37,290 nt of DNA from the IMG/VR virus record IMGVR_UViG_3300028394_000043. One strand, 5' to 3'. Made by a program: the position numbers and the translations under genes. How positions within the stretch are numbered: position 1 is the stretch's first letter; each line of letters opens with the position of its first letter. Shown piece by piece: positions 2,568 to 34,284 of this stretch. The notes under the pieces are model-generated. The model had not been told where the DNA came from, did no database searches, and saw nothing but the letters and a program-made list of their open reading frames with translations. This DNA comes from a virus. Lineage: Duplodnaviria > Heunggongvirae > Uroviricota > Caudoviricetes.

Positions 2568-2585
2568 TATATAATTTGATAAAAT

Positions 2586-5500
2586 ATGTCTAATCTAAAC
2601 TATAAGAATCCTTTATCTCCTCTTATTGCGAATGGAAGTCAAACTTCATTACGTACAAGTACTTTTGGAACAACCTTTAGTGTCCTTAACACAGGTGGTT
2701 TTATGGAGGTTTACACCCTGAATGATTTAATTTATAACATACCAATTGGTAGTTATGGTGATATTGAATTTTCGGGGAATACAATTCCTATTCAATTATG
2801 GAAAGGAACGGGTAGTTCATTTTCTTTTGACACTTTAACTTTAAATTCAGACAATATTTCATCCGGAAGACGCCGTCTTGGGATGTTAGTTTATGTTTAC
2901 GAAACAAATCAAATTTATCAGTATTCAATAGATAATTACAATACTTTATGGTCGGACGCATTAGGTGCGTCAGGACCGGGTGGTAATACCGTAGTTGTAT
3001 CGGATTTTGGAACAACAATTAAAAATAATACACCTGAAGGTCAAACATTTATAAACACTTGGATAGACTCAACTATTGAGGGTGTTAATGGGGTTACAAG
3101 ACCAAACGCCAGATGGAGAATATTGGCAACATCTTCAACAGACATATATGTTACCGGAGGTACTTATTTTTCATCATCAACAACATTAGATTTATACAGA
3201 AATGATGGTGTGACAGTATCTATCACAGGATTTACATCCGGTGGTGGTGGTACAGGTACATCAGGTACAAGCGGAACTTCAGGAACAAGCGGTATAGATG
3301 GAACTTCAGGAACAAGCGGTATAGATGGAACTTCGGGTACTAGTGGTATAGATGGAACTTCGGGTACTAGTGGTATAGATGGAACTTCGGGTACGAGTGG
3401 TATTGACGGAACTTCAGGGACAAGTGGTACTTCAGGCACAAGTGGAATTGATGGTACTTCGGGAACGTCAGGTACTAGCGGAACTGCGGGTACGAGTGGA
3501 ATAGACGGAACTTCAGGAACAAGTGGAACATCAGGTACGAGTGGAATTGATGGTTCATCAGGAACAAGCGGTATAGATGGTTCATCCGGTACTAGTGGTA
3601 TAGATGGTTCATCAGGAACTTCAGGGTTAAGTGGTATTGACGGTATAGACGGAACATCAGGTACTTCTGGTACAAGCGGTACTTCAGGTACATCCGGAAC
3701 TTCAGGTACAGGTGGAACAAGTGGAACTGCCGGTACGTCAGGTACGAGTGGCACATCAGGAACAACGGGTACTTCAGGTACTAGTGGGACTTCAGGAACG
3801 TCAGGCACTAGCGGTACAACAGGAACAAGTGGGACTGCGGGTACATCAGGGACAAGTGGTATAGATGGAACATCAGGGACAAGTGGTATAGATGGTACTT
3901 CAGGTACATCAGGTATAGACGGAACATCAGGAACATCAGGATTAAGTGGTATTGACGGTTTAGACGGTACTTCAGGAACAAGTGGTACAAGCGGAACAAC
4001 AGGAACAAGTGGTACAAGCGGAACAACAGGAACAAGTGGTACAAGCGGAACAACAGGAACAAGTGGTACTTCAGGTTCAACGGGAACATCAGGGACTTCA
4101 GGTACTAGTGGAACGACAGGTACATCGGGAACTTCAGGTACAACAGGAACTAGTGGAACATCAGGAACAACAGGTACTAGCGGAACATCAGGAACTGCGG
4201 GTACTTCAGGTACGTCAGGAACTACCGGAACATCAGGAACATCAGGAACATCGGGTACTTCAGGTACAAGCGGTATAGATGGAACATCAGGTACGAGTGG
4301 AACTGCGGGTACAAGCGGAACTTCAGGGACTAGTGGAATAGACGGAACCTCAGGTACAAGCGGAATAGACGGAACATCAGGAACAAGTGGTATAGACGGA
4401 ACATCAGGTACAAGTGGTATAGACGGAACATCAGGAACATCAGGATTAAGTGGTATTGACGGTTTAGACGGTACTTCAGGAACAAGTGGTACAAGCGGAA
4501 CAACAGGAACTTCGGGTACTAGTGGAACAAGCGGAACATCAGGTACATCAGGTACATCAGGTACTAGTGGCACAACAGGAACAAGTGGAACAAGTGGAAC
4601 TGCGGGTACGTCAGGGACATCAGGTACTAGCGGCACAACAGGAACGTCAGGAACTGCGGGTACAAGTGGAACATCGGGTACATCAGGCACTTCAGGTTCT
4701 AGCGGAACATCAGGAACTAGCGGTACAAGTGGAACTTCAGGAACAAGCGGAACTTCGGGTACAAGTGGAACTTCGGGTACAAGTGGAACTTCGGGTACAA
4801 GTGGTACATCAGGTACAACAGGAACTTCGGGTACTAGTGGAACAAGCGGAACATCAGGTACATCAGGTACATCAGGTACTAGTGGCACAACAGGAACAAG
4901 TGGAACTTCAGGGACTAGTGGAATAGACGGAACATCAGGAACTAGCGGTACAAGTGGAACTTCAGGAACAAGCGGAACTTCGGGTACAAGTGGAACTTCA
5001 GGAACAAGCGGAACTTCGGGTACAAGTGGTACATCAGGTACAACAGGAACTTCGGGTACTAGTGGTACTGCGGGTACAAGTGGAACATCAGGTGTAAATG
5101 GTACTTCAGGAACATCAGGTACATCAGGTATAGACGGAACATCGGGTACTTCAGGTATAGATGGAACATCGGGCACTTCAGGTACAAGTGGTATAGATGG
5201 TACTTCAGGTACATCAGGAATAGACGGAACATCAGGAACAAGTGGTATAGATGGTACTTCAGGAACATCAGGAACATCAGGAACATCAGGGTTAAGTGGT
5301 GTAGATGGTATTGACGGAACTTCAGGAACATCAGGAACAACAGGTACTAGCGGAACATCAGGAACAAGCGGTACATCGGGTACTTCAGGAACAACAGGCA
5401 CTAGCGGAACATCAGGAACTGCGGGTACAAGTGGAACTTCAGGAACTACAGGCACTAGCGGAACAACCGGAACTTCAGGTACATCAGGAACTAGTGGCAC

Positions 5501-8500
5501 TTCAGGAACAAGTGGAACAACAGGTACATCGGGTACGAGTGGAACTTCGGGTACTTCAGGAACTAGCGGTACATCAGGAGTAAATGGTACTTCAGGAACA
5601 AGTGGTATAGATGGTACTTCAGGTACATCAGGTATAGACGGAACATCAGGTACGAGTGGTACAACAGGAACAAGCGGAACTTCAGGTACTGCTGGTACAA
5701 CAGGAACAAGTGGTACTTCAGGTACAAGCGGAACTGCGGGTACTTCAGGAACTAGTGGAACATCAGGAACAAGTGGAACTGCGGGTACAAGTGGTACTTC
5801 AGGTACAAGCGGAACATCGGGTTCTTCAGGAACTTCAGGTACTTCAGGTACTAGCGGCACAACAGGAACAAGTGGAACTGCGGGTACATCGGGGACAAGT
5901 GGTTCATCAGGAACAAGTGGGACTAGCGGTACTTCAGGAACTAGCGGAACATCAGGGGTAAATGGTTTATCAGGTGTAAATGGTACTTCAGGCACATCAG
6001 GAATAGACGGAACTTCAGGTACATCAGGAACTTCAGGTTCAACAGGAACTAGTGGAACATCAGGAACAAGTGGAACTTCAGGAACAAGTGGGACAACGGG
6101 TACAAGCGGAACATCAGGTACTAGTGGGACTTCAGGAACATCAGGAACAAGTGGAACTGCGGGTACAAGTGGTACATCAGGTTCAACAGGAACTTCAGGA
6201 ACTTCAGGGACTAGTGGAATAGACGGAACCTCAGGTACTTCAGGTACATCGGGAACTAGCGGTACTGCGGGTACATCCGGAACTTCGGGGACAACAGGAA
6301 CTAGCGGAACGTCAGGAACTGCGGGTACAAGTGGAACATCAGGAACAAGTGGAACTGCGGGTACAAGTGGTACATCAGGAACAAGTGGTATAGACGGAAC
6401 TTCAGGTACATCGGGAATAGACGGAACATCAGGAACAAGTGGTATAGACGGAACTTCAGGTACATCAGGGTTAAGTGGTGTAGATGGTATGGACGGAACT
6501 TCAGGCACATCAGGAACTAGCGGAACATCAGGTACTTCAGGTACATCGGGAACTTCAGGTACATCGGGAACTTCAGGTACATCGGGAACTTCAGGTTCAA
6601 GTGGAACATCGGGTACGAGCGGGACATCGGGTACAAGTGGAACTAGCGGTACAACAGGGACTAGTGGCACGTCAGGAACGAGTGGAACTGCGGGTACTAG
6701 TGGGACTTCAGGAACGTCAGGTACTAGTGGTACATCAGGTTCAACAGGTACATCAGGAACTAGTGGAACAACAGGAACAAGCGGTACGTCAGGTACAAGT
6801 GGAACTACCGGAACATCAGGAACAAGTGGTTCAACAGGAACTAGTGGGACTTCGGGGACAACAGGAACTTCGGGTACATCGGGAACTTCAGGTTCAGCGG
6901 GTACATCGGGCACAACCGGAACTAGCGGAACTTCAGGTATTAATGGTACTAACGGTACAAGCGGAACTTCAGGTACAACAGGAACTTCAGGTACAACAGG
7001 GACTAGCGGTACATCAGGGACAACAGGTACGTCAGGAACAAGTGGAACTAGTGGTACAACAGGGACATCAGGTACTTCAGGTGTAAATGGTTTATCAGGT
7101 GTAAATGGTACATCAGGAACTTCGGGTACAACAGGAACAAGCGGTACATCAGGAACTACGGGTACAAGTGGAACTGCGGGTACAACAGGAACAAGTGGAA
7201 CATCCGGTTCATCAGGAATAAATGGAACAAATGGTACGTCGGGAACTGCCGGTACAAGCGGAACATCAGGAACTGCTGGTACTTCAGGGACATCGGGAAC
7301 AAGTGGTACAACAGGAACTAGCGGCACGTCAGGAACGAGTGGAACATCGGGGACAAGTGGTTCTTCAGGAACAACAGGTACATCAGGAACTGCGGGTACG
7401 AGTGGAACATCGGGTACAAGTGGAACATCGGGTACAAGTGGAACATCGGGTACAAGTGGAACATCAGGAACTGCGGGTACAAGTGGAACTGCGGGTACTA
7501 GTGGAACAACAGGAACTTCGGGGACATCAGGTTCAACAGGTACTTCAGGAACATCAGGAATAAATGGAACTAACGGTACGTCGGGAACTACGGGGACTAG
7601 CGGAACTTCAGGAATAAATGGAACTAATGGTACAAGCGGAACATCGGGAACAACCGGGACAAGTGGTACTTCAGGAATAAATGGAACAAACGGTACGTCA
7701 GGAACTGCGGGTACATCAGGGACTTCAGGTACAAGCGGAACTGCGGGTACTTCAGGCTCAACAGGTACTTCAGGAACTGCGGGTACAAGTGGAACAACCG
7801 GAACTAGTGGTACATCAGGTACAAGTGGAACTAGCGGTACAACAGGGACATCCGGAACATCAGGTACAAGTGGTACTTCAGGTGTAAATGGTTTATCAGG
7901 AGTAAATGGTACTTCAGGAACTGCGGGGACAAGCGGTACATCAGGTACAAGTGGAACTTCAGGAATAAATGGAACTAACGGTACTTCAGGGACAACAGGA
8001 ACATCAGGTACTAGTGGAACATCGGGTACTTCAGGAACAAGCGGAACAACAGGTACATCGGGTACGAGTGGAACATCAGGCACTACAGGTACAAGCGGGA
8101 CTGCGGGTACTACAGGAACCTCAGGAACAAGTGGTACGTCAGGAACAAGTGGTACGTCAGGTACATCGGGTACGAGTGGAACATCGGGTACTTCAGGGAC
8201 AACAGGAACATCAGGTACTAGTGGAACATCGGGTACTAGTGGAACATCGGGTACTTCAGGAACAAGCGGAACAACAGGTACATCGGGAACTTCAGGAACA
8301 AGTGGAACTGCGGGAACATCAGGAACTACGGGTACGAGTGGGACTGCGGGAACAACAGGTACGTCAGGAACAAGTGGAACTGCGGGTACTTCAGGAACAA
8401 CAGGTACTTCAGGTTCAACGGGTACAAGTGGTACATCAGGTGTTAACGGAACTAATGGTACTAGCGGAACAACAGGGACATCCGGAACTTCGGGGACAAC

Positions 8501-11500
8501 AGGGACTAGTGGAACATCAGGTTCAACAGGAACATCCGGTACTGCGGGTACTTCAGGCTCAACAGGTACTTCAGGAACAAGTGGAACATCCGGTACTACA
8601 GGTACGTCAGGAACTAGCGGAACAACAGGAACTAGTGGAACATCAGGAACTGCGGGTACGAGTGGTACATCAGGAACATCAGGAATAAATGGAACTAACG
8701 GAACAACAGGTACAAGCGGTACTAGTGGTACAACCGGGACTTCAGGAACTAGCGGTACCACAGGTACAAGTGGAACTACAGGAACATCGGGTACATCGGG
8801 AACGAGTGGAACAACAGGAACTAGCGGAACTTCAGGAACTTCAGGAACAACCGGAACTTCGGGAACTAGTGGTTCAACGGGAACTAGCGGAACTGCGGGT
8901 ACAAGTGGTACATCGGGAACTACAGGAACTAGTGGTACTTCAGGAACAACAGGTACATCGGGAACTGCGGGGACAAGCGGAACTACAGGTACTAGTGGTA
9001 CGTCGGGAACTACGGGAACTAGCGGAACTTCAGGAATAAACGGAACTAATGGTACAAGCGGAACATCGGGAACAACCGGAACTAGCGGGACTTCGGGAAC
9101 AACAGGTACTAGTGGAACATCGGGAACATCGGGAACATCAGGTACAAGTGGTACTTCAGGTGTAAATGGTTTATCAGGAGTAAATGGTACTTCAGGAACT
9201 GCGGGTACAAGTGGAACTAGCGGTACAACCGGAACATCAGGTACAAGTGGAACAACAGGTACATCAGGTACTAGTGGAACATCGGGAACATCAGGTACTA
9301 GTGGTACTTCAGGAACTGCGGGTACTAGTGGTACTTCAGGAACTGCGGGTACAAGTGGAACTAGCGGAACGTCAGGAACAAGTGGTTCAACAGGTACTTC
9401 GGGAACTAGTGGTACGTCAGGTACAACAGGAACAAGCGGTACTTCGGGAGTTAATGGAACTAATGGTACAAGCGGAACTAGTGGAACTTCAGGTTCAACA
9501 GGAACGTCAGGTACAACCGGTACGAGTGGAACAACGGGTACTTCAGGTACATCAGGAGTTAATGGAACTAATGGTACGTCAGGAACTACGGGTACTTCAG
9601 GTACTTCAGGTACTTCGGGAACAAGTGGAACTACAGGAACATCTGGTACAAGCGGAACATCAGGAACTAGTGGAACTGCGGGTACGTCAGGAACATCGGG
9701 TACAACAGGAACAAGCGGTACATCAGGAACTTCAGGAATAAATGGAACTAATGGTACAAGCGGAACTTCAGGAACTTCAGGAACTGCGGGTACAAGTGGA
9801 ACAACCGGGACAAGCGGTACTTCAGGAACAACCGGGACATCGGGTACGTCGGGAACTGCCGGTACAAGTGGTACGTCAGGTACGAGTGGAACTTCGGGAG
9901 TAAATGGAACTAATGGTACGTCAGGAACTTCGGGAACTTCAGGTACATCAGGGACAAGCGGTACTACAGGTACAAGTGGAACATCAGGAACTGCGGGTAC
10001 AACAGGAACAAGTGGAACATCCGGTTCATCAGGAATAAATGGAACAAATGGTACTTCGGGAACTACAGGAACTAGTGGAACTTCAGGAATAAATGGAACT
10101 AATGGTACAAGCGGAACTACAGGAACTTCAGGTACATCGGGTACTTCAGGAACTAGTGGTACAACGGGTACAAGTGGAACATCAGGTGTTAACGGTACAA
10201 ATGGTACAAGTGGAACTACAGGAACATCAGGTACAACGGGTACTTCAGGAACTAGTGGTACAACGGGTACAAGTGGAACATCAGGTACAAGCGGTACAAC
10301 AGGAACAAGTGGAACAACCGGAACTAGTGGAACAACCGGAACTAGTGGTACATCGGGAACTTCAGGTTCAACGGGTACATCGGGAACTTCAGGTTCAACG
10401 GGTACATCGGGTACATCGGGTACATCGGGAACTAGTGGTACTAGCGGAACATCAGGTACATCAGGGACTTCGGGTACAAGTGGAACATCTGGTACAACCG
10501 GGACTTCAGGAACAAGCGGAACATCAGGCACTTCAGGGGTAAATGGTTTATCAGGAGTAAATGGTACTTCAGGAACTAGCGGAACATCAGGTACAAGCGG
10601 TACAACAGGAACAAGTGGAACAACCGGAACTAGTGGAACAACCGGAACTAGTGGTACATCGGGAACTTCAGGTTCAACGGGTACAACAGGAACTAGTGGA
10701 ACTTCAGGAATAAATGGAACTAACGGTACATCGGGTACGACCGGGACTTCAGGTACGAGTGGGACTTCAGGAACTGCGGGCACAAGTGGAACTAGCGGAA
10801 CATCAGGAACTACGGGTACGAGTGGGACTTCAGGTGTTAACGGTACTAATGGAACATCAGGAACTACGGGTACAAGTGGAACTTCAGGAACTACAGGTAC
10901 AAGCGGAACTTCAGGTACTAGTGGAACATCGGGTACAACAGGTACAAGTGGAACAACAGGAACTTCAGGGACTAGCGGAACAACAGGAACAAGCGGTACA
11001 TCAGGTACAACAGGAACATCGGGTACTAGCGGTACTTCGGGAGTTAATGGGACTAATGGTACATCAGGAACTACAGGTACTAGCGGTACTTCAGGAATAA
11101 ATGGAACTAATGGTACTTCAGGTACAAGCGGTACGACAGGTACAAGTGGTACGTCAGGTTCAACAGGAACATCGGGAACTAGCGGTACAACAGGTACTTC
11201 AGGTACTTCAGGAACTGCGGGTACATCAGGTACAAGTGGAACTGCCGGTACAAGCGGAACATCGGGTACGTCAGGAACAAGTGGAACTACCGGAACATCA
11301 GGAACTACGGGTACGAGTGGAACATCAGGAACTACAGGTACAAGCGGAACTACGGGTACAAGTGGTACGTCAGGTACAACAGGAACAAGTGGTACAAGCG
11401 GAACATCAGGTACAAGTGGTACTTCAGGTACAAGCGGAACATCAGGAGCTAATGGTGTAGATGGTGCTGTAGGTCCAACAGGAGCGTCAGGAACAAATGG

Positions 11501-14500
11501 AACAACAGGTACAAGCGGAACTAGTGGTACATCAGGAACATCGGGCACTTCAGGAATAAATGGAACTAACGGTACTTCGGGTACAAGCGGAACATCAGGG
11601 ACTACAGGAACTAGTGGGACTTCAGGTTCAACGGGTACATCGGGGACTACAGGAACTAGTGGAACTAGTGGAACTTCAGGTTCAACGGGTACATCAGGGA
11701 CTAGCGGAACTTCAGGAACATCAGGAACTAGTGGAACAACAGGAACAAGCGGAACTGCAGGTACGAGTGGTACTTCAGGAATAAATGGGACAAACGGTAC
11801 CTCAGGTACTACCGGAACAAGTGGAACTTCAGGTTCAATGGGGACATCAGGAACATCCGGTACAAGTGGAACTTCAGGTTCAACGGGGACATCAGGAACA
11901 TCCGGTACAAGTGGAACTTCAGGTGTTAACGGTACTAATGGTACTTCGGGAACTTCGGGAACTACGGGGACTAGTGGTACAACAGGAACTAGTGGAACTG
12001 CCGGTACTTCAGGAACATCAGGAATAAATGGAACTAATGGTACTTCAGGAACAACAGGAACTAGCGGTACCACGGGAACATCAGGTACAAGTGGAACAAC
12101 GGGTACTAGTGGAACAACGGGTACAAGTGGAACTTCGGGGACTACAGGAACGTCAGGTACATCGGGAACTACAGGTACAAGTGGTACGAGTGGTTCAACA
12201 GGAACTTCGGGAACTACAGGTACAAGTGGTACGAGTGGTTCAACAGGAACTTCGGGAACTACAGGTACAAGCGGTACTTCAGGTTCAACAGGTACTAGCG
12301 GTACTTCGGGAGTTAATGGGACTAATGGTACATCAGGAACCACAGGTACAAGTGGAACTAGCGGTACAACAGGGACTTCAGGTACAAGCGGTACTAGCGG
12401 AACATCGGGGACAAGTGGTTCAACAGGAACATCAGGAACAAGTGGAACTTCAGGAACTGCGGGAACTTCAGGAATAAATGGAACAAACGGTACATCAGGA
12501 ACTAGCGGAACTGCGGGAACAAGTGGAACAACAGGTACGAGTGGTACAACAGGAACGTCAGGTACGAGTGGAACAACAGGTACAAGTGGTACTTCAGGAA
12601 TAAATGGAACTAACGGTACTACAGGAACTTCAGGGACTGCGGGTACAAGCGGTACTACAGGAACATCAGGAACTAGTGGAACAACAGGAACAAGCGGAAC
12701 ATCGGGTACTTCAGGAACTAGTGGAACTACAGGAACATCCGGTACAACAGGAACTAGTGGAACTTCAGGTGTTAATGGAACAAACGGTACCTCAGGTACA
12801 AGTGGTTCATCAGGCACAAGTGGAACATCAGGAGCCAATGGTGTGGATGGTGCTGTAGGCCCAACAGGAGCTTCAGGGACAAATGGAACTAGCGGAACTT
12901 CAGGAACTACGGGGACTAGTGGTACAACAGGAACAAGCGGGACTTCGGGTACAACAGGTACATCGGGGACAAGCGGAACTACAGGTACTAGCGGTACTAC
13001 AGGTACTAGCGGTACTTCAGGAATAAATGGTACTTCAGGTACAAGCGGTACTAGTGGAACTGCCGGTACAAGCGGTACAACAGGAACATCGGGGACTAGT
13101 GGAACAACGGGGACAAGCGGTACGTCAGGAACTACAGGTACATCAGGAACATCAGGTGTTAATGGAACTAATGGTACGAGCGGTACTTCGGGTACAAGTG
13201 GAACAACAGGAACTAATGGTACGAGCGGTACTTCGGGTACAAGTGGAACAACAGGAACTAGTGGAACTGCCGGTACAAGCGGTACTTCAGGAACGTCAGG
13301 AACAAGTGGGACTACCGGAACAAGCGGTACGACAGGAACATCAGGAACTGCTGGTACAAGCGGGACTTCGGGTACAAGCGGGACTTCGGGTACAAGCGGA
13401 ACAACGGGTACATCAGGTTCAACAGGAACATCGGGAACTAGCGGAACAACAGGTACTTCGGGTACGACAGGAACTAGTGGTACTTCAGGTACATCAGGGG
13501 TTAATGGAACAAACGGTACATCGGGAACTAGCGGGACCACAGGAACTTCAGGTACATCAGGTACAAGTGGTACTTCAGGAGTTAATGGAACTAATGGTAC
13601 ATCGGGAACTACAGGAACTAGTGGGACATCGGGAACTACAGGTACATCGGGTACGAGTGGAACTAGTGGAACTGCCGGTACAAGCGGAACTTCAGGAACA
13701 TCAGGAACATCAGGAATAAATGGAACTAATGGTACAAGTGGAACTTCAGGAACTTCGGGTACTTCAGGAACAACAGGTACAAGCGGAACTTCAGGCTCAA
13801 CCGGTACATCAGGAACTAGTGGGACTGCGGGTACAAGTGGTACTTCAGGAATAAATGGAACTAACGGTACTTCAGGGACAAGCGGAACATCAGGAACTGC
13901 GGGTACAAGTGGAACAACGGGAACATCCGGTACTTCAGGTTCAACGGGTACATCGGGTACTTCAGGTACAAGCGGTACTTCAGGAATAAATGGAACTTCG
14001 GGGACTACAGGTACAAGTGGAACTTCAGGTGTAAATGGTACAAGCGGAACTGCGGGTACGTCAGGAACAAGTGGAACTACCGGAACATCAGGAACTACGG
14101 GTACGAGTGGGACTTCAGGTGTTAACGGTACTAATGGAACATCAGGAACTAGTGGAACAACAGGTACAAGCGGTACGTCAGGTACTAGCGGAACGTCAGG
14201 TGTAAATGGTACAAGCGGAACAACAGGAACTAGCGGAACAACAGGTACAAGCGGAACATCAGGTACAAGTGGAACTTCAGGGACTAGTGGAACAACGGGC
14301 ACTTCAGGTACTAGTGGAACAACGGGTACTTCAGGTACAAGCGGAACATCAGGAGCTAATGGTGTAGATGGTGCTGTAGGTCCAACAGGAGCGTCAGGAA
14401 CAAATGGAACGAGCGGAACAACAGGTACATCGGGAACATCAGGTACAACCGGAACATCAGGGACTTCAGGAATAAATGGAACAAACGGTACATCAGGAAC

Positions 14501-17500
14501 TACAGGAACAAGTGGTACATCAGGAATAAATGGGACAAACGGTACCTCAGGTACAAGTGGAACTGCGGGTACGTCAGGTACAACAGGAACTTCAGGAACA
14601 AGCGGGACTTCAGGTACAAGTGGAACTTCAGGAACAAGCGGGACTTCAGGTACAAGTGGAACTACAGGTACTTCGGGTACGACAGGAACATCAGGAACTT
14701 CTGGTACAAGCGGGACTTCGGGTACAAGCGGAACAACGGGTACATCAGGCACTAGCGGTACATCAGGAACTTCAGGTGTTAATGGTACATCAGGAACAAG
14801 TGGAACATCAGGAGTTAATGGAACAAATGGTACAAGCGGTACTTCGGGAACAAGCGGTACAACAGGTACTAGTGGAACGACAGGTACAAGCGGGACTTCA
14901 GGTACAAGTGGTTCAACAGGAACTAGCGGTACATCGGGAACGTCAGGAACTAGCGGTACAAGCGGTACTTCAGGAACTACAGGAACATCGGGAACTACAG
15001 GAACATCGGGAACTAGTGGTACAAGTGGTACTACAGGAACTTCAGGGACAAGTGGTTCAACAGGTACAAGTGGAACATCAGGTGTTAATGGAACTAATGG
15101 TACAAGCGGAACTAGTGGAACAACAGGTACTTCAGGAACTGCCGGTACAAGTGGAACGACAGGAACTAGCGGTACATCAGGTTCAACAGGAACATCGGGA
15201 ACTAGCGGAACAACAGGTACTTCGGGTACGACAGGAACATCAGGAACTACAGGAACTAGCGGTACTACAGGTACAAGCGGAACTACAGGAACTAGTGGTA
15301 CTTCAGGTACATCAGGGGTTAATGGAACAAACGGTACATCGGGAACTTCAGGTACATCAGGAATAAATGGAACTAACGGTACATCGGGTACGACCGGGAC
15401 ATCAGGAACAAGTGGAACATCAGGTACTTCGGGGACTACAGGTACTAGTGGAACATCAGGAACAAGCGGAACATCGGGTACTTCGGGAGTTAATGGGACT
15501 AATGGTACATCAGGTACGAGCGGTTCTTCAGGAACTACCGGAACATCAGGAACTACGGGAACAAGTGGTACTTCAGGTACATCAGGAACTAGTGGAACTT
15601 CAGGTTCAACAGGAACTAGCGGAACTGCGGGTACAAGTGGTACTTCAGGAATAAATGGAACTAATGGTACTTCGGGAACTAGTGGAACATCGGGAACAAC
15701 AGGTACGAGCGGAACTTCAGGTTCAACAGGAACAAGCGGTACTTCGGGAGTTAATGGAACTAATGGTACATCAGGTACTTCAGGTACAAGTGGAACGTCA
15801 GGTGTAAATGGTACAAGCGGAACTACAGGTACAAGTGGTACTTCAGGAATAAATGGGACAAACGGTACTTCAGGTACTACGGGGACAAGCGGTACGTCAG
15901 GTGTTAATGGTACAAATGGTACAAGTGGAACATCAGGAACATCAGGAACATCAGGTACAACCGGAACTAGTGGAACATCGGGTACTTCAGGTACAAGCGG
16001 AACTACAGGTACAAGCGGAACATCGGGTACTAGCGGAACATCGGGAATAAATGGAACTAACGGTACCTCAGGTACAAGTGGTTCTTCAGGAACATCAGGA
16101 ACCAGAGGTACATCGGGTACAAGTGGAACAACAGGAACTAGTGGTACATCGGGGACTTCAGGTGTAAATGGTTTATCAGGAGTAAATGGTACTTCAGGAA
16201 CTGCGGGGACAAGCGGTACATCAGGAACTACGGGGACTAGTGGTACAACGGGTACATCAGGAACGAGTGGAACTTCAGGGGTTAACGGTACTTCAGGGAC
16301 TAGCGGTACCACAGGTACTTCAGGAACTTCAGGTGTTAACGGTACAAGCGGTACTGCGGGAACAAGCGGAACTACAGGTACGAGTGGTACTTCAGGTACT
16401 ACGGGGACAAGCGGTACTTCCGGTACAAGTGGAACAACAGGTACTAGTGGAACGACAGGTACAAGCGGGACTTCAGGAACATCGGGAACTACAGGAACAT
16501 CGGGAACTAGTGGGACTACAGGTACTTCAGGGACTAGTGGAACTACAGGTACTTCAGGAACAACAGGAACTAGTGGAACTTCAGGTGTTAATGGAACTAA
16601 TGGTACTTCAGGTACTAGTGGAACGACAGGAACTAGCGGTACATCAGGTACTAGTGGTACGACAGGTACATCAGGTACAAGCGGAACAACAGGAACTTCA
16701 GGTACATCAGGAACATCAGGAATAAATGGTACAAGCGGAACATCAGGAGCTAATGGTGTAGATGGTGCTGTAGGTCCAACAGGAGCGTCAGGAACAAATG
16801 GAACAAGCGGAACAACAGGTACAAGCGGAACTAGTGGTACATCAGGAACATCGGGCACTTCAGGTACAAGCGGTACTTCAGGAATAAATGGAACTTCGGG
16901 GACTACAGGTACAAGTGGAACAACAGGTACATCGGGTACTACAGGAACATCAGGTACAACAGGAACATCGGGAACTAGTGGAACTAGCGGTACAACCGGA
17001 ACATCAGGGACAAGTGGAACTGCGGGGACTTCGGGAGTTAATGGTACATCAGGAACTAGTGGTACTTCGGGAACTGCCGGTACAACCGGAACATCAGGGA
17101 CTTCGGGTACGACAGGTACATCAGGGACAAGTGGTACATCAGGGACTTCAGGTGTTAATGGAACTAATGGTACTTCAGGTACTACGGGTACAAGCGGAAC
17201 ATCAGGTTCAACAGGTACTAGTGGAACGACAGGTACATCGGGTACGAGTGGAACTAGCGGTACTACAGGTACTTCAGGAACTTCAGGAGTTAATGGTACA
17301 TCGGGGACTTCAGGTACTGCGGGTACGAGTGGAACTACAGGAACTAGTGGTACTTCGGGTACATCCGGAACTACAGGAACTTCAGGTACATCAGGAACAA
17401 CAGGAACTAGCGGTACTTCAGGTATTAACGGTACAAGTGGAACAACGGGAACTTCAGGTACTACAGGAACTAGCGGTACTTCAGGTGTTAATGGAACTAA

Positions 17501-20500
17501 TGGTACAAGCGGTACTTCAGGGACAACAGGAACTAGCGGTACTACAGGTACTTCAGGAACTTCAGGAGTTAATGGTACAAGCGGAACAACAGGAACATCA
17601 GGTACTAGTGGAACTTCTGGAGTAAATGGGACTAGCGGTACCTCAGGTACGAGTGGAACAACAGGAACAAGTGGTACATCAGGTACAACCGGAACATCAG
17701 GTACTACAGGAACATCAGGAACTGCGGGTACAAGCGGTACATCAGGAGTTAATGGCACGAGTGGAACAACAGGTACATCGGGAACTAGTGGAACAACGGG
17801 AACATCAGGGACTGCCGGTACAAGTGGAACTGCGGGTACAAGTGGAACAACGGGTACTTCAGGTACAAGCGGTACTTCAGGAATAAATGGAACTTCGGGG
17901 ACTACAGGTACATCGGGTACTACAGGAACATCAGGAACATCGGGAACTAGTGGAACTAGCGGTACAACCGGAACATCGGGAACTACAGGGACATCAGGGA
18001 CAAGTGGAACTGCGGGGACTTCTGGTGTAAATGGAACTAACGGTACTTCAGGAACAACAGGTACAAGTGGAACTGCGGGGACTTCGGGAGTTAATGGTAC
18101 ATCAGGAACTAGTGGTACTTCAGGTACAACAGGAACATCCGGAACATCGGGTACATCCGGTACTTCAGGTGTAAATGGTACAAGCGGAACAACGGGTACA
18201 TCAGGTACAAGCGGTACAAGCGGAACTTCAGGTGTAAATGGTACAAGCGGAACAACGGGAACATCCGGTACTTCAGGTTCAACGGGTACTTCAGGTACAA
18301 GCGGTACTTCAGGAATAAATGGAACTTCGGGGACTACAGGTACATCAGGGACAAGTGGAACTGCGGGGACTTCGGGAGTTAATGGTACATCAGGAACAAC
18401 AGGAACTAGTGGAACGTCAGGTACAAGTGGAACTTCAGGAATAAATGGAACGTCAGGTGTTAACGGTACTAATGGTACAAGTGGAACAACCGGAACTAGT
18501 GGTACTTCGGGAGTTAATGGAACCTCAGGAACAACAGGAACTAGTGGAACTTCAGGAACTACAGGTACAAGCGGAACTTCAGGTACTAGTGGAACATCGG
18601 GTACAACAGGAACAAGTGGTACTTCAGGTGTTAATGGAACTAGCGGAACAACGGGTACATCGGGTACAACAGGAACAAGCGGAACTTCAGGAGTTAATGG
18701 AACATCAGGAACAACAGGAACATCGGGTACAACAGGAACAAGCGGAACTTCAGGAGTTAATGGAACATCGGGAACAACAGGAACTAGTGGAACTTCAGGC
18801 GTAAATGGTACAAGCGGAACAACAGGTACAAGCGGAACAACAGGTACATCCGGAACAACAGGAACTAGTGGTACTTCAGGTGTAAATGGTACAAGCGGTA
18901 CGACAGGAACATCGGGAACAACAGGAACATCGGGTACAAGGGGTACTTCGGGAACAAGTGGAACGACAGGAACTAGTGGAACAACAGGTACAAGCGGTAC
19001 GACAGGAACATCAGGTACAAGTGGAACTTCAGGTATTAACGGTACAAGCGGTACGACAGGAACATCAGGTACAAGTGGAACTTCAGGTATTAACGGTACA
19101 AGCGGTACGACAGGAACATCAGGAACAACAGGTACAAGTGGAACTTCAGGAATAAATGGAACATCAGGAACAACAGGTACAAGTGGAACTTCAGGAATAA
19201 ATGGAACATCAGGAACAACAGGTACAAGTGGAACGTCAGGTGTAAATGGTACAAGTGGTACTTCAGGTGCAAATGGTATTGATGGTGTTGCTGGTGCGGG
19301 AGGTACGAATGGAACATCGGGCACTTCAGGTATTAATGGTGCTAACGGTACAAGTGGAACTTCAGGAACTAGCGGAACTGCAGGAACATCCGGTACTTCA
19401 GGTACAAGAGGTACAAGTGGAACTAGCGGTACAACAGGAACATCGGGTACTTCAGGTATAAATGGTACATCAGGCACAAGTGGTACTTCAGGTATAAATG
19501 GTACTTCAGGAACTAGCGGTACAACAGGAACATCGGGTACTTCAGGAACAAGTGGTACAACAGGAACATCGGGTACAACAGGAACGTCAGGTACAAGAGG
19601 TACAAGTGGAACTAGCGGAACAACAGGTACATCCGGAACAACAGGAACATCGGGAACAACAGGTACATCCGGAACAACAGGAACATCGGGAACATCGGGG
19701 GTATCAAATTCAAACGCAACTGCGGTATCGGTTACTAACGCAAATACAACAGCGTCAACATTTTATCCGGTCTTTGTAACAACAGATGGTTCCTCACAAA
19801 CTTTATATGTTGATAAAGAATCTACAGCGGCAACATCTTTATCGTATAACCCAAATACCGCATATTTATATGTTGGGTTAGGAATTTCCTCGTCAGCTGT
19901 CCTAACAGGGTCATTTGGGTTTAACATTGGTATTTATTCACAAATAGGTGGATTAGCACCTGGTTTAACCACAGACGGTGTTTCAGGGTTATTATTAGGT
20001 GATGTTAATGCTGGTGGTGCCTCAACAGCATTTATTGGTCCAACATATGTTGATAATGCTGAGTTAACTTCGGGAGGTTTAAAATTTAATGAAAGAACAA
20101 CATATAAACAACCAACATCAAACATTGGTTATGGTGACACTGTTTATTATGGTAGTTCAGGTGGAGCTTTAACTGCAGGACTTATTTATTATTTAAACAC
20201 GGCAGGTGCTTGGACTATTGCAAACTCAAACGTTGTTTCATCATCTAAATATATGTTAGGTATTGCATTAGGAACATCAATATCTAACGGTATGTTAGTT
20301 AGAGGTTATGCTAAATTTGCGGTTGGTAATTACGCTTCAGTAACTATTGGTCAAATACTTTATTTAGGAACAACAAATGGGTATTTCCAATCAACCGCAC
20401 CGGCATCAACAGCTCAGGTAGTTAGGGTTGTTGGATATTGTGTGGACGCAACAAATGACATTATTTATTTCTGTCCTGACAATACTTGGGTTGAAATAGC

Positions 20501-20518: not shown

Positions 20519-21217
20519 ATGGCAACAATAACATCTGCGGCAACAAGAGGTAGTGTAAAAGCACAAGGGATTAGTTCGTTATATAGTACTTGGGAAGAAA
20601 TTAGAGATTTCACAAATGGAACAAGTGTTTCCGTAAATACAAATGATGCTCAAGCAATTAGAGTAAGTGATGTGACAACTAAATTAACAACAACTTGGAC
20701 TTGCCATAGATATTTTATGGCGTTTGACACTTCGGCAATAACGTCAGTTCCCGGTTCGGCAACATTGTATATCTATGGTAATACAACCGCCACTAGTGAT
20801 TTAATTGCGGTTAAAGCAACAGCCCCAACAACATCCACAAATATTGCAACAACAAATTATTCAAATATTTCCGGTTATCTCGCCACTAATAGTATGGCAG
20901 GATTAGTTACCGACTATTCATCAGTCGCAGGACCGGGATTAAGTACTACTGCATATAACGCAATCCCTTTAAACTCCGCAGCACTATCTGATATGAATAG
21001 TTTAACAACATTTAAATTAGCGTTAGTTAATTATTCACAAGATTATTTATATGTGGCACCATTAGGTGGTCAAGATTTAAGGATGGGAATAAGTATTACA
21101 AATGCCCCGTATATAACATATACGGGGTTTGGAGGTAAAATTTATAGTATATCATTGGCGAGTATTAGTAAGGTTGATGATACCGCAATATCAAATATTG
21201 GTAGTATAAATGTTTAA
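20519..21217 (+). CDS. Putative fibre-tip/adhesin partner protein, possibly a DNRLRE/CBM96-like beta-sandwich
   Basis: 232 aa, 14 nt downstream of the giant gene. HRYFMAFDTSAI..SATLYIYG resembles the DNRLRE-type pattern; short C-terminal I-x-x-I repeat tail. Confidence 0.5.
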   Translation: MATITSAATRGSVKAQGISSLYSTWEEIRDFTNGTSVSVNTNDAQAIRVSDVTTKLTTTWTCHRYFMAFDTSAITSVPGSATLYIYGNTTATSDLIAVKATAPTTSTNIATTNYSNISGYLATNSMAGLVTDYSSVAGPGLSTTAYNAIPLNSAALSDMNSLTTFKLALVNYSQDYLYVAPLGGQDLRMGISITNAPYITYTGFGGKIYSISLASISKVDDTAISNIGSINV

Positions 21218-24200
21218 TCAAATAAATGTTGTATTTGGTTTATAACCATTTCTGATGTTATTGATTTGTGACACTCAAATTGACGTTGAGTTCCTTTATG
21301 TTCGGGACACCAATTCCAATCACCTTTATCAAATTTAAATTGTGGTTTATTCCAACATCCATTACATACGGAGGTGTTAATAATCCTCGTACAATTAGTG
21401 GTAAACTCGTGGTCAGGTTCAGTAAAATTAGAAATCATAACAACGTGTTTTCCAATCGCCCAAGATAACCAAGAAAGACCACTTGATAACCCAATAAAAA
21501 AATCGCTATTATGAATAACATTCATAGTATTTTCAATTGAAGTATCTTTTATTTTTGTAACATTTTTTAAGTCATCTCCTTTTTTGGAAACATTTATAAC
21601 TTTGTAACCTTTTAAAACTAAATAATCAACCAATTCTTGCCAACCCGTTGGGTTGTTCCAATATTTTAATCCTGATGTTGATTCATTTGCTATTGTCACA
21701 TATTTTGTGTTATACGGATTACCTTTTGGTGTAAAATTAATCTCAGGTTTTATTTCAGTAAATTCTAAACCAAGTATGTTGGTTACCGTTTTCTGTAATG
21801 GAATAGTATTTGGTAATTCAGGTTCGCAATCTTCGTTATAAAACCAACCCAATTTATACATACCATAAAGGTTATGGACTGTTACTCCCGGTTCAACAAA
21901 CACTAACTCAGGATATGTTTTCTTAAATAATTTATTCCAAAATGTTGACACAATTACAATACAATTATGTTTTTTCTTAAATTCTAATGCGTATGGTATC
22001 CAAGCAATTGTGTCACCTAAAGACTTACTATCATATGCGATATATACTCGTTTACCGGTATAGTCTAAAGTATTCTCATATATAATATTACCATCTTTAG
22101 TGATTTGAGTGTTCCATTTAGTGTAATACTCTCTATTTAATTTAACCCACGTATTAAGTGAGATATTATTTTCATATTGAACAACACCTTGTTCATCTCT
22201 GAATTTAACATTATAAATCCCATCATCAGTTCCTTTAATCTCTAAAAAAGGTTTCTCAACAAAATATTGAGTCACCTCAATTTCTAATGATAGTTTTTCT
22301 TGTTTAGTAATATCCATATTGTTTACTTTCTTATATAAATTTTCGTGTTTCTTTGCAAAAGTTTCTGATTGATTAACCGGTAATGTATATGATACCTCAC
22401 TATCCAATAACTGTAATAATTTGTTCTTGGTAGATTGTAAATTATCATATATTGGTGTAATATACTGAATAAACATATCCATATATTGTGGTAAGTTTCT
22501 TGATAATATTTTAAGACCATATGATGCAGCTTCTCTTAAAACTAATGGATTACATTCCCAAGTTGAATTAAACATAAGGACATCCGCGGATTTCATAAAT
22601 AAATGAACATCGTTTCTTTCACCCCACACAATAACATTAGAGGGGATGTCTTTCATTATTGGTTCCCAGTATTCTTGGAAATTTGGAGCTTGATTTCCTA
22701 TGAAATGAAATTGTAATTCCGGATTGGTATTTTCCAATAACCTTGCTAATTCAATACCTTCTTTTTGGTTTTTACCTTGTGTCCAAAGACCAACATTAAT
22801 GATATGTTTTTTAGATAAATCAAAACCTAATTTAATTTTTGACGATAATTTATCATCTTCAGTTGTAATATTATTATCTATAGGAAATTCTAATACTTCA
22901 CTATACGATGGCATATCTGTAAATGATTTTTCTTTATGGTATGGAGTACAAAATGCGTATGCCTCAGGGTGAAATTTTTTGGATAAATATGGGTTAAAAA
23001 ATATGTTATGACAAGTTTCAATAACTTTCCAAGTTCTATTATTATTGTATAGTAAATTCATTAATTCTGATGAAACATTATTAAACGCATCAAAGGATTC
23101 TAACATCTCATCTAAATGAACGATATCTATATTATTTTTTTTGATAATATCTATCACTTCTAATTTATTTTCACCTAATGTCCAAAAATGAGATGGAGGT
23201 ATTAATTTTTGGATTTCACTTTTTTGAACAATATACTCGTAACTAACATTTGAATATTCAACAACAAATATTTCAAATATGGTGGTATATTTTAATAATG
23301 TTTCAATTCTTTTTAATAAGAAACTTGGCATACCTCCGGTTGAAAGATGAGGACACAAGAATAAAATTTTAATTTTAGAAGTCTCATTTTTATTATCAAT
23401 TAAATCAAATATTTTTTCAATTTCGGATTCTCTTTTTTCTCCGTGAAATACTTTAATATTTGTTTTATTTTTTGGTAATAAATAAAATTCTTTTACCATT
23501 GTATCTGACTCAACATTAGTTGTTAAAAAATGATTAACAGTATCCGCACCATTAACATTAATATAAACCATAGGTAACCCTTTACCTTCTGTTGATAATT
23601 TCCAAGTCAATACATTATAAATTGTTTCATCAGAAAATGGGCAAATATGTGCAACGTCAACTATTTTTGAAAATAGATTTTTACATTCTTTCCATATTAA
23701 AATAAAATCTTTAACATCTTTAGTTCCAACTATAACATTAGTTGTTCTATAGTGACTTCTCTGTTCAGGTAACATCCCAAAAAAACTCATCATAGGCCAT
23801 TCTAAAGTATTTGTTAAATCAACCGAATTATCTTTTTTCCAAAATGGGTTTCCTTTTAAAGACCCATCTGAATTTACAATTAAAACATATTCATACGGAC
23901 CTAAACTTGCCAATGGAAATTCTTTAACTTCTTTACAATAGTCAAATAAATCATCAATATTTGTGTTTGCAATACAATCCGAGTCTAAATAAACCCACTC
24001 ATCTATTTGAGATTCACAAGCGTCCAACATACTATCAATTTTAGCCCCTAACGATAGAAAAGTTCTTAATGTTTGTCTATTAACATATTGATTACCCTCG
24101 TAGGTTGTAAAACTATCTTCAGATAGTGAGGGTAAATTTAAATCTAACCTTTTACATTTACAGATAGAGGTTAGTTTATCTGTTGCGGTATAATCAATAG

Positions 24201-24303
24201 TATAAACAATAATATCATATTTTGAATATTTTTTGATGCTACGAACTAATTGATACGTAATATCTTCATAATTTTTTGTTGTGTGTGTTATAAAACTTCT
24301 CAT
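21214..24303 (-). CDS. Three-domain glycosyltransferase: GT-A (GT8-like) + GT4 + Aah/TibC-like protein O-heptosyltransferase domain
   Basis: aa ~1-305: YLDSD DxD, FSDE, VFHG. aa ~310-665: PHLSTGGMP, NVGLWTQGKNQ, ECNPLVLREA (GT4 E-X7-E). aa ~675-1029: SLGDTIAW, FIGLSSGLSWLSWA, CNGCWN..WCP..FEC (four-Cys iron finger of Aah/TibC). Confidence 0.85.
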   Translation of the reverse strand: MRSFITHTTKNYEDITYQLVRSIKKYSKYDIIVYTIDYTATDKLTSICKCKRLDLNLPSLSEDSFTTYEGNQYVNRQTLRTFLSLGAKIDSMLDACESQIDEWVYLDSDCIANTNIDDLFDYCKEVKEFPLASLGPYEYVLIVNSDGSLKGNPFWKKDNSVDLTNTLEWPMMSFFGMLPEQRSHYRTTNVIVGTKDVKDFILIWKECKNLFSKIVDVAHICPFSDETIYNVLTWKLSTEGKGLPMVYINVNGADTVNHFLTTNVESDTMVKEFYLLPKNKTNIKVFHGEKRESEIEKIFDLIDNKNETSKIKILFLCPHLSTGGMPSFLLKRIETLLKYTTIFEIFVVEYSNVSYEYIVQKSEIQKLIPPSHFWTLGENKLEVIDIIKKNNIDIVHLDEMLESFDAFNNVSSELMNLLYNNNRTWKVIETCHNIFFNPYLSKKFHPEAYAFCTPYHKEKSFTDMPSYSEVLEFPIDNNITTEDDKLSSKIKLGFDLSKKHIINVGLWTQGKNQKEGIELARLLENTNPELQFHFIGNQAPNFQEYWEPIMKDIPSNVIVWGERNDVHLFMKSADVLMFNSTWECNPLVLREAASYGLKILSRNLPQYMDMFIQYITPIYDNLQSTKNKLLQLLDSEVSYTLPVNQSETFAKKHENLYKKVNNMDITKQEKLSLEIEVTQYFVEKPFLEIKGTDDGIYNVKFRDEQGVVQYENNISLNTWVKLNREYYTKWNTQITKDGNIIYENTLDYTGKRVYIAYDSKSLGDTIAWIPYALEFKKKHNCIVIVSTFWNKLFKKTYPELVFVEPGVTVHNLYGMYKLGWFYNEDCEPELPNTIPLQKTVTNILGLEFTEIKPEINFTPKGNPYNTKYVTIANESTSGLKYWNNPTGWQELVDYLVLKGYKVINVSKKGDDLKNVTKIKDTSIENTMNVIHNSDFFIGLSSGLSWLSWAIGKHVVMISNFTEPDHEFTTNCTRIINTSVCNGCWNKPQFKFDKGDWNWCPEHKGTQRQFECHKSITSEMVINQIQHLFD

Positions 24304-25256: not shown

Positions 25257-25894
25257 AACATATCTTTAAATCTATATTCTCTTTCAATCCTATCATTTTC
25301 ATTCCCTTTTTGTATAATAATACAATTTGGTGCAAATGTAATCATTTTAATATTTAATGGATTTGAGTGTAAATTATAATGACTGTTGACGGTGTGATTA
25401 AGTTTTGTGAAATAATCAACAATATTTAGATTTCCGGTATTATAACCATATAATGTGGTATTAGGGTTCCAATAACTACATTCAATATCTTCAATAATAT
25501 AGACACCTCCGTCTTGTAATAAATTTTCAAATAAATAATAAAAACATTTTAATTGATGGTCGGCTATATGACTACCATCATCAATTATTATTTTACAATC
25601 ATCTATTTTAGATGAAACACTTATTAAATCATCTATATTACTTTGGTCTCCCATAAAAATTTCACCTCTTTCAGTAATTGAAGAATGTCCAATATCCATC
25701 CCATATATTTTAGCAAGACTAAAATATGTTTCCCATAATTTATAAGATTTTCCCTCATCAATACCAATCTCTAATAATGAGAACTTTTCATTTTTAAATT
25801 TATCTAAAAATATAGGATAAATTTCTGTATATTGATGATATGTTGATTTATCACAATCAAAATTATTTGATAATTTGGTCATTAATTCATTCAT
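25253..25894 (-). CDS. Class I SAM methyltransferase, MycE/TylE-like sugar O-methyltransferase type
   Basis: LLEIGIDEGKS (motif I), IYGMDI, GDQS, IIIDDGSH, GGVYIIEDI. Confidence 0.8.
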   Translation of the reverse strand: MNELMTKLSNNFDCDKSTYHQYTEIYPIFLDKFKNEKFSLLEIGIDEGKSYKLWETYFSLAKIYGMDIGHSSITERGEIFMGDQSNIDDLISVSSKIDDCKIIIDDGSHIADHQLKCFYYLFENLLQDGGVYIIEDIECSYWNPNTTLYGYNTGNLNIVDYFTKLNHTVNSHYNLHSNPLNIKMITFAPNCIIIQKGNENDRIEREYRFKDML

Positions 25895-25898
25895 AGTT

Positions 25899-31467: not shown

Positions 31468-31471
31468 TCTA

Positions 31472-33668: not shown

Positions 33669-33669
33669 T

Positions 33670-34275: not shown

Positions 34276-34284
34276 TCAATTTAT

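Follow-up and report, generated by a model that had tools for sequence, protein, structure and literature searches.

The collagen-like gene and its repeat

The DNA analysed here, referred to as the window, is a stretch of 37,290 nucleotides (nt) from a tailed virus of the Caudoviricetes (IMG/VR record IMGVR_UViG_3300028394_000043). It contains one giant open reading frame (ORF) that appears to encode a virion fibre, and in a long tract of the product Gly occupies every third residue, as in collagen (Table 1). The N- and C-terminal domains are joined in the same order in an orthologue, L002:5006-10810, found on the 215-kb contig IMGVR_UViG_3300032330_001609. When the product of 5,972 amino acids (aa) was scanned by script, the longest run with Gly at every third residue was 1,829 triplets. 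A first-pass annotation of the same DNA had described 1,828 triplets in strict register from aa 224 (nt 3255). The strict register holds, but the run begins at aa 221 (nt 3246) and the count is corrected to 1,829.

Table 1. Features of the window that are discussed in the text
Feature	Position (nt)	Strand	Remarks
Giant gene for a putative fibre	2586..20504	+	Single ORF, 5,972 aa, 509 kDa, isoelectric point 4.05; phage homologues at both ends
N-terminal domain (aa 1-220), candidate virion-attachment domain	2586..3245	+	237 cluster representatives at E<=0.001
Collagen-like tract (aa 221-5707)	3246..19706	+	1,829 uninterrupted Gly-X-Y triplets, nearly uncharged, 4 Pro
27-nt (GTS-GTS-GID) tandem array	3273..3429	+	Tandem Repeats Finder (TRF): period 27, 5.8 copies, 92% matches
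Landmark GAN-GVD-GAV-GPT-GAS, GANGVDGAVGPTGAS	11445..11489, 12831-12875, 14352-14396, 16746-16790	+	Four copies, aa 2954, 3416, 3923, 4721, in register
Related landmark GAN-GID-GVA-GAG, GANGIDGVAGAG	19266-19301	+	aa 5561, in register
Beta-rich neck (aa 5708-5843)	19707..20114	+	Low-confidence beta strands in monomer model
C-terminal predicted beta-tulip domain (aa 5844-5971), candidate trimerisation/tip or capsid-binding domain	20115..20504	+	Predicted local distance difference test (pLDDT) >90
Antisense ORF, 5,437 aa	3164..19477	-	By-product of the repeat, not a gene
Conserved partner gene, 232 aa	20519..21217	+	Directly 3' of the fibre gene
Three-domain glycosyltransferase (GT), 1,029 aa (GT-A-like, GT4/GT1, TibC/Aah-type)	21214..24303	-	Pfam GT1 and GT9
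Methyltransferase (213 aa) and methyltransferase-GT34 fusion (523 aa)	25253..27470	-	
Second glycosylation cassette	30220..35970	+	GT60-type N-acetylglucosamine (GlcNAc) transferase, GT25, two PLOD-type GT domains, methyltransferase, HtrL/YibB-like

The 5,487 residues of the tract are mainly Thr (1910), Gly (1832), and Ser (1270), followed by Asn (165), Ala (90), Ile (78), and Val (73). Asp (46), Leu (13), Pro (4), Arg (4), and Met (2) are rarer, and Lys and Glu are absent (0 each). The script thus agrees with the first reading of the tract, which had found only four Pro and no Lys. Thr had also been placed mostly in the X position, and it is found there in 1599 of the 1829 triplets (87%). The Y position holds Ser in 1221 triplets (67%) and Thr in 311 (17%), and Thr and Ser together make up 58% of the tract. 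The triplets counted are GTS (1192), GTT (272), GTA (73), GVN (61), GTN (57), GIN (41), and GID (37). Each of three 1,000-aa pieces of the tract matched the Pfam Collagen family (PF01391) at an E-value of ~1e-139 and with 452-458 bits against a cut-off of 27.2, a score that is driven largely by the Gly periodicity. The tract does not have the residues that stabilise collagen, which are imino acids in X or Y and pairs of Lys with Glu or Asp. Since Lys and Glu are absent and Pro (4), Arg (4), and Asp (46) are so few among 5,487 residues, a helix formed by the tract would require another stabiliser. Its calculated length is 1.57 μm at 0.286 nm per residue.

The atypical inserts that were said to keep the register were all located in frame. 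A GANGIDGVAGA(S/G) form of the second landmark is kept near the C-terminal end of the collagen region in the orthologues P0003 and P0005. Motifs are arranged in zones along the tract. GID is found only at aa 236-1286, apart from one in the terminal landmark (aa 5564). G(I/V)N-GTN occurs at aa 1451-5291, and G(I/V)N-GTS is found mainly after 4400. Triplets with a hydrophobic residue in X and Asn or Asp in Y recur every ~7-11 triplets with an irregular spacing of 1 to 53 triplets, and no periodicity of the hydrophobic-X triplets was found in the tract beyond the 3-triplet spacing of the first zone.

The antisense ORF was considered as a real gene and rejected; homologous termini are absent from it. 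The frame is open because the sense pattern GGN-ACN-TCN/AGY cannot give a stop codon in it. The gene calls on record for three contigs from other samples, which are described below as L121, L122, and L123, are minus-strand antisense products of 3,407, 4,426, and 2,406 aa. Since gene callers chose the antisense frame, the true fibre protein is missing from protein collections.

Reproducibility of the tract and selection on glycine

If the tract were an assembler loop, or near-identical strain variants joined end to end, it should contain long stretches that are almost the same. None were found, and either origin is therefore unlikely. The longest exact internal DNA repeat is 105 nt, and all 127-mers are unique. 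Of all pairs of 198-nt segments in the 16.4 kb, the most alike share 88.9% identity (baseline 64%). The 27-nt array near the start of the tract is its one DNA repeat of high identity.

Contigs from other samples were found by exact-protein look-ups of the flanking genes. Contigs of at least five other samples match positions 2-12,594 and 19,117-22,137 of the window at 99.8-100% identity. The contig L121 (Joint Genome Institute (JGI) 3300027963) equals positions 2-12,567 at 100%. L123 (JGI 3300009155) matches positions 5-10,385 with one synonymous single-nucleotide polymorphism. L122 (JGI 3300010160) matches positions 5-12,594 with one in-register indel of 27 nt. It is without exactly one GTS-GTS-GID unit (nt ~3368) and is otherwise identical over 12.6 kb. 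This difference between samples is an in-register copy-number polymorphism. In the 16,441-bp contig of L122, the repeat frame stays open to the contig end, ~13.3 kb or ~1,475 triplets. Other contigs match the 5' end of the window (L124-L126) or its 3' end (L119 and L120), and a 26-kb contig from sample 3300010885 carries the final 4 kb of the fibre gene. The four samples named here come from lakes. The concern that the repeat was misassembled and is in truth much shorter is largely answered by these contigs.

The third positions of Gly codons are uncorrelated at every lag (an identity of ~0.42 is expected for independence), and the same is true of Thr codons; at lag 1 there is a slight anticorrelation (0.370). 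A non-synonymous change was found in 0 of the 1,829 Gly codons, and there are no 3- or 6-nt indels in the 16.4-kb tract. Relatives have ~1 register break per 70-100 triplets, which predicts ~18-26 for the tract; none is seen. The strict periodicity cannot be chance. Because synonymous sites have been randomised and yet no Gly has been replaced, the register is held by selection and not solely by duplication in multiples of 9 nt. The tract DNA is saturated at synonymous sites, so the long tract looks acquired or ancient and not recently amplified. Relatives show in-register changes of Gly to Ala and a few non-triplet breaks. Since they tolerate interruptions, it is this copy that is strict, and the family as a whole is not. 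The earlier claim of strict register is thus upheld for the window, where it is under selection, and does not extend to the homologues.

Codon usage in the tract differs from that in the rest of the window. For Ser, TCT makes up 1% in the tract and 21% elsewhere, and AGC makes up 16% and 3%. For Ala, GCG makes up 69% and 18%. Adjacent Gly codons tend to alternate between GGA and GGT (lag-1 identity of 0.370 compared to 0.422 expected). This codon bias may reflect selection against slippage-prone identical neighbours or a mutational path between the Ser codon families via Thr.

Terminal domains, relatives and glycosylation genes

The N-terminal domain is located at residues 1-~220 of proteins of 250-2,196 aa in all 150 matches listed of the 237 cluster representatives. 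The C-termini that follow it are very diverse, and the beta-tulip C-domain was found in none of the 150 matches listed. Judged from sequence, this is the pattern of virion attachment with exchangeable distal parts that is seen in phage tail fibres. The domain was modelled by AlphaFold2 (AF2) with a pLDDT of 79. A fold search of the PDB gave no clear match; the best, at Z 3.8, was with the N-terminal anchor regions of phage tailspikes. BFVD gave one significant match, to a homologous uncharacterised protein of an uncultured Caudovirales. These results are no evidence of a new fold.

At the other end of the tract, the neck has weak matches only. These are to the trimeric fibre shafts of T7 gp17, T4 gp34, S16 gp37, and T5 pb1 (Z 2.8-3.8). 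The model of the C-domain has a beta-tulip fold, which is a class of trimer-forming proteins. With VIA-align, it matched HFTV1 8qsy_JI (Z 10.7, root-mean-square deviation 3.0, 115 aligned), Pam3 8hdt_G (Z 9.8), FCWL1 9kmh_ak (Z 9.5), XM1 (Z 8.8), and Adjutor (Z 8.4). Six matches have Z>=8, and all six are capsid decoration proteins. Lower matches include the phi29 gp12 C-terminal fragment 3gqh (Z 6.8), which we take to be the gp12 autochaperone domain, and the base of the phi29 head fibre gp8.5 (Z 6.2). Foldseek agrees with VIA-align, and a sequence-profile search of the PDB with the C-domain gave nothing meaningful. The C-domain was found in 115 phage or metagenome loci. It is 38% identical to the end of a Flavobacterium phage immuto protein named "tail fiber protein", a name that comes from annotation and not from experiment. 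The immuto gene lies in a tail module, upstream of the lysozyme, sheath, and tube genes. Tail genes were not found in the window itself.

The 232-aa gene that follows the fibre gene appears to be a conserved partner. In 63 of 106 loci with the C-domain, the fibre stop codon is followed by the start of a homologue tens of nt later. Many of the other C-domain loci carry a different gene family of ~187 aa in the same place. No Pfam, PHROG, or PDB sequence match was found for the partner. Its Atlas model resembles CBM96 carbohydrate-binding modules (template modelling (TM) score 0.57-0.62), which is a lead only. By analogy, the arrangement of the two genes resembles that of a tail-fibre tip with its chaperone or adhesin.

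The orthologue on the 215-kb contig is 1,934 aa in length and contains 316 triplets in 7 segments that are separated by globular domains, with a few register breaks. By tblastn, it is identical to the window protein at 91% in the N-domain and 93% in the last ~130 aa. The flanking genes are 93% (341-aa gene), 71% (232-aa gene), and 69% (TibC-like gene) identical. The globular inserts of the orthologue are located at ~aa 412-527, 768-938, 993-1075, and 1469-1576, and none is present in the window copy; flanking genes are 70-95% identical although the inserts differ. Other relatives of the orthologous fibre (L037, L003, L049, and L030) share its G-(T/S)-S chemistry. Fibres of the C-domain family reach 325 triplets, and their longest unbroken run is 194 (L003). 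The 215-kb contig encodes a gp18-like tail sheath and is thus that of a contractile-tailed jumbo phage. The closest relatives of this sheath are from a 484-kb uncultured phage and from Microcystis phage Mel-JY01. The Terminase_6C family was not found on the relatives' contigs. The T4 gp23 capsid family gave no match on them or in control genomes, so this result is uninformative on absence.

Numerous genes for glycosylation are found beside the fibre gene. The nearest, 0.7 kb downstream, encodes the 1,029-aa enzyme, whose aa 700-1029 (nt 21217-22206) are TibC-like. This region matched the TIGR04414 equivalog, "autotransporter strand-loop-strand O-heptosyltransferase", with 290 bits against a cut-off of 200, and TibC in the PDB (4rap) at an E-value of 5.6e-49. 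The four Cys of the TibC iron finger, residues 339, 342, 358, and 370 (PMC4358343), are aligned (C-x-x-C, C and C). By these sequence matches, the protein ends in a true TibC/Aah-type protein O-heptosyltransferase domain. An autotransporter family was not found among the window ORFs; the repetitive, Ser-rich neighbour of the enzyme is the fibre.

In the second cassette, Pfam matches are to PF11397 (E 1.5e-72), PF01755, PF25342 (twice), PF13578, and PF09612. The GT60 shares 49% identity with Xanthomonas jumbo phage genes. The GT25 and the two stand-alone PLOD/LH3-type GT domains (window 31472-33668) are relatives of collagen hydroxylysine glycosyltransferases; the neighbouring collagen-like tract is without Lys. 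A hydroxylase gene was not found in the window.

Co-occurrence was explored for distinct loci with a downstream flank of at least 5 kb, counting Gly-X-Y runs of at least 20 and a TibC-like gene within 10 kb. By this count, all 5 fibres with Gly-X-Y have a TibC-like gene nearby and none of the 24 others does (Fisher p 8e-6), in loci that are often related and represent ~4-5 independent lineages. Over all distinct loci, the numbers are 7 of 11 and 1 of 73. Every fibre that has a TibC-like neighbour is of the G-(T/S)-S type; Ser fills 50-92% of its Y positions, and Pro is nearly absent. TibC-like domains were also seen elsewhere. LR756501/LR756503 (735 kb) and LR756504 (636 kb), whose genomes are among the largest known of uncultured phages, have domains that are 37-47% identical to that of the window. 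In phage Mel-JY01 (PP395634.1, L128, positions 3065-8430), the domain is part of a 1,226-aa "methyltransferase FkbM" that directly follows a 508-aa Ser-rich "structural protein".

A possible glycan-stabilised fibre and its alternatives

The gene probably, though far from certainly, encodes a virion fibre of an uncultured, contractile-tailed freshwater jumbo phage. The fibre would be a homotrimeric, glycan-stabilised triple helix of ~1.6 μm that is attached by its N-domain and trimerised and tipped at its C-terminus. The N-domain would dock the fibre on the particle, and the tract would form the collagen-type helix. The neck and the beta-tulip domain would trimerise and set the register of the chains, and together with the 232-aa downstream protein they could form the distal tip. 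The helix would then zip along the tract from the C-terminus; folding from this end is the collagen norm as described in PMC11923368. The chains would be O-glycosylated in the host cytoplasm, densely on the ~1,270 Ser and 1,910 Thr. Heptose could be placed onto Ser by the TibC-type domain and extended by the fused transferases, and GlcNAc could possibly be placed onto Thr by GT60. The methylases may cap the glycans, and the other transferases of the flanking island may take part. The resulting thread, long, flexible, and coated with glycans, would let the phage catch host cells over a wider radius. Glycans are likely to be needed because the tract is without Pro and charge pairs and (Gly-Pro-Thr)10 is a coil unless its Thr is galactosylated, according to work cited in PMC11923368. 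The earlier suggestion that folding depends on glycosylation now has genomic support from the TibC/Aah domain 0.7 kb downstream and its co-occurrence with the Gly-X-Y fibres of the family. If six trimers per virion are assumed, 18 chains amount to ~107,000 residues, and the cost of synthesis is not prohibitive.

Several points weigh against this proposal. Thr in X and Ser in Y have low helix propensity in host-guest peptide work. In the precedent for glycosylated Thr, the residue is in Y, whereas it is in X in the window tract. According to PMC4358343, TibC acts on a folded beta-helix inside its dodecamer ring, a substrate of different geometry. The co-occurrence of TibC-like genes with Gly-X-Y fibres comes from few independent lineages. 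In Mel-JY01, the TibC-like domain adjoins a Ser-rich structural protein without Gly-X-Y repeats, and this pairing indicates that the TibC-type enzyme is not specific to collagen-like repeats and goes with Ser-rich phage fibres generally. The fold of the C-domain is best matched by capsid decoration proteins and so fits a head anchor as well as a distal tip. Lastly, a junction of ~27 nt near window positions 16,472-16,499 is bridged by the window alone among the contigs compared.

Other explanations were considered. It is very unlikely that the 16.4-kb tract arose in assembly, as a chimera or loop built from a shorter repeat or from several strain variants. The tract exceeds the longest unbroken run of any relative ~9-fold, and the contigs of other samples all end somewhere within the repeat. 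A collection of 5.8 billion proteins contained no protein of 3,284-10,451 aa with the fibre C-domain, a weak negative because public gene calls are antisense, which explains the gap. A protein search with the repeat region for other giants, weak for the same reason, gave one protein of 3,469 aa with only 173 triplets. An exact 41-nt landmark search of the IMG/VR collection gave no match, and the window itself is absent from the collection searched. The tract has no long or near-identical internal duplicates, its motifs are zoned in an orderly manner, and separate assemblies agree over 12.6 kb; one of them stays in the repeat for 13.3 kb, and the last 4 kb of the gene were obtained from another sample. 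It is also improbable, to a lesser degree, that no triple helix is formed and that the protein is disordered or a single-chain, mucin-like, O-glycosylated tether (a bottlebrush). The Gly periodicity would then be for the most part a legacy of duplications in multiples of 9 nt. This would suit a tract of low-propensity residues that is without imino acids or salt-bridge pairs, has the Thr and Ser content of mucin domains, and adjoins a large glycosylation island. The only natural length variant observed is a 27-nt unit, so slippage keeps the register unaided. However, unit duplication cannot account for the retention of all Gly codons at saturated synonymous sites without a 3- or 6-nt indel, and a disordered tether needs no such selection. 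In addition, the Gly-to-Ala changes of the relatives are the mildest collagen defect, and the folds of the terminal domains have trimeric relatives.

The fibre may instead be anchored on the head, although this seems unlikely. The C-terminal beta-tulip would bind three-fold or quasi-three-fold sites of the capsid, in the manner of decoration proteins and the phi29 gp8.5 base, and the thread would project outward with the N-domain free. Collagen-like capsid auxiliary proteins such as SPP1 gp12 exist. Capsid decoration or cement proteins fill the first 13 places among the structural matches of the C-domain (Z 7.1-10.7), the base of the phi29 head fibre is also matched, and herpesvirus triplex proteins have Z 5-6. 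In the N-domain family, however, the N-terminus is constant and the C-terminus is variable, which is the usual pattern of N-terminal attachment. The immuto gene with the C-domain belongs to the tail module, where it lies shortly before the sheath gene, and the small partner gene follows the C-domain as chaperones and adhesins follow tail-fibre tips. The phi29 gp12 fragment, at Z 6.8, matches the C-domain about as well as the head-fibre base does. Hundreds of 1.5-MDa trimers per capsid would also be very costly. Another Gly-dependent fold, of stacked polyglycine-II/polyproline II (PPII) bundles and not a three-chain helix, is extremely unlikely. Gly-X-X repeats with little Pro do occur in the snow-flea antifreeze protein and in adhesin folds of phage S16 gp38, and the recurring hydrophobic-X/Asn-Asp triplets could mark turns. 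Such folds need turns that break the register, whereas the tract is unbroken over 5,487 residues. The candidate turn motifs are irregularly spaced, and Pfam Collagen matches throughout the tract.

The fibre proposed for the window can be compared to several known systems. Collagen-like phage fibres have reportedly been known since 1998, from an article by Smith et al. entitled "Bacteriophage collagen". The tail fibres of P-SSM2 (orf028) and of the Escherichia coli O157 prophage (EPclA-D) likewise have Gly-X-Y between non-collagen fibre domains. Known phage collagens have tens to low hundreds of triplets, Pro, and ~22% charged residues (EPclA), and no dedicated glycosylation genes have been described for them. 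In contrast, the 1,829 triplets of the window protein are unbroken and hold 4 Pro and no Lys, and an island for protein O-glycosylation adjoins its gene. It also differs from the L002-type orthologue by having no internal globular domain and no register break. In cyanophage P-SSM2, X and Y are described as often being Pro, Ser, or Thr (PMC1079782), and the EPcl proteins are described as forming trimeric triple helices (PMC3368898, cited in PMC11923368). For prokaryotes, PMC11923368 mentions collagen-like chains that reach ~2,000 triplets but are interrupted. The length of the tract alone is therefore not unprecedented.

Glycosylated collagens are another point of comparison. The BclA protein has GPT repeats, with Pro in X and Thr in Y, in tens of triplets and ends in a C1q/TNF-like domain. 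The window fibre, with Thr in X, Ser in Y, GPT only 4 times, and a predicted beta-tulip end domain, is not of the BclA type. Riftia and annelid cuticle collagens are ~1.5-2.5 μm long. These extracellular proteins of animals carry Thr in Y and contain much Pro, in contrast to a viral tract with Thr in X and Ser in Y that would be made in the cytoplasm. According to PMC8968730 and PMC11923368, BclA of the Bacillus anthracis exosporium is a Thr-rich collagen-like filament that is O-glycosylated on Thr and has a C-terminal trimeric globular domain. In the cuticle collagen, galactosylated Thr is reported to take over the stabilising role of hydroxyproline (Mann et al. 1996, cited in PMC11923368). 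Mimivirus encodes collagen-like proteins together with L230, a collagen-type hydroxylase/glucosyltransferase (Luther et al. 2011, cited in PMC8968730). The window is similar in having GT25 and two PLOD-type GT genes beside a collagen-like protein. The acceptor chemistry must differ from the hydroxylysine of Mimivirus, since the tract is without Lys and the window is without a hydroxylase gene.

In the TibC-TibA and Aah-AIDA-I pairs, as in the window, the enzyme is beside a long, highly repetitive, Ser-rich surface protein that is the presumed substrate for hyperglycosylation. Those substrates are beta-helical autotransporter passengers of bacteria, whereas the window enzyme is fused to two transferases and its presumed substrate is a collagen-like fibre. 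The phi29 gp8.5 and HK97-type decoration proteins appear to share the fold of the last ~130 residues (Z 6.2-10.7) and form trimers, and gp8.5 carries a fibre. That fibre is alpha-helical and not collagen-like. The beta-tulip of gp8.5 is N-terminal, whereas in the window it would be C-terminal, ending a 5,972-aa protein.

Collagen-like phage fibres, Thr-rich glycosylated bacterial collagens (BclA), and animal collagens with glycosylated Thr are thus already known. New in the window are the 1,829 unbroken triplets, the loss of the orthologue's internal globular domains, the full scrambling of codons, and the reproducibility across samples. To our knowledge, such a fibre would far exceed any other tailed-phage fibre in length. 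The stability of collagen is currently ascribed to imino acids, hydroxyproline, and, more recently, Lys-Glu/Asp clamps, as outlined in PMC11923368. The tract is without these known stabilisers, its Gly is selected, and glycosylation enzymes are encoded alongside, and it offers a natural test of whether glycans alone can hold a triple helix. A bolder form of the proposal is rather doubtful but can be put forward. It is that the tract represents a third way to the collagen helix, micrometre-long, without any interruption, and without imino acids or salt bridges. It would be held by dense O-glycans only (heptose on Ser and possibly GlcNAc on Thr), placed by a ring-shaped TibC-type enzyme that threads the chain processively, and it would serve a jumbo phage as a long-range, host-catching line with a glycan coat in dilute lake water.

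If the fibre is indeed glycosylated, it would show clearly that a phage glycosylates a protein of its own virion. Most of the examples documented so far come from mycobacteriophages, in their capsid and tail-tube proteins (Freeman et al. 2023, as cited in PMC12619734). The wrong-strand gene calls make giants of this type invisible in protein databases, and searches for giant viral collagen-like proteins are blind to them. A codon-scrambled, genetically stable (GTS)n gene with matching transferases could be a template for recombinant glyco-collagens, and Mel-JY01 is a cultured, tractable system in which fibre heptosylation by a phage can be explored.

Other genes of the window were also inspected. 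No tRNA genes were found in it. The ORFs at window 27581-29914, 1542-2567, and 2-361 have weak matches to phrog_15511, a PHROG without an assigned function. Homologues of one of them, a 777-aa ORF, are limited to L002 and L037, the closest relatives. Two genes upstream of the orthologous fibre, a 191-aa gene (L002:3380-3955; the orthologue of window 954-1535, 193 aa) has a sub-threshold similarity to BclA_C (PF18573; E 0.0055, 17 bits against a cut-off of 38).

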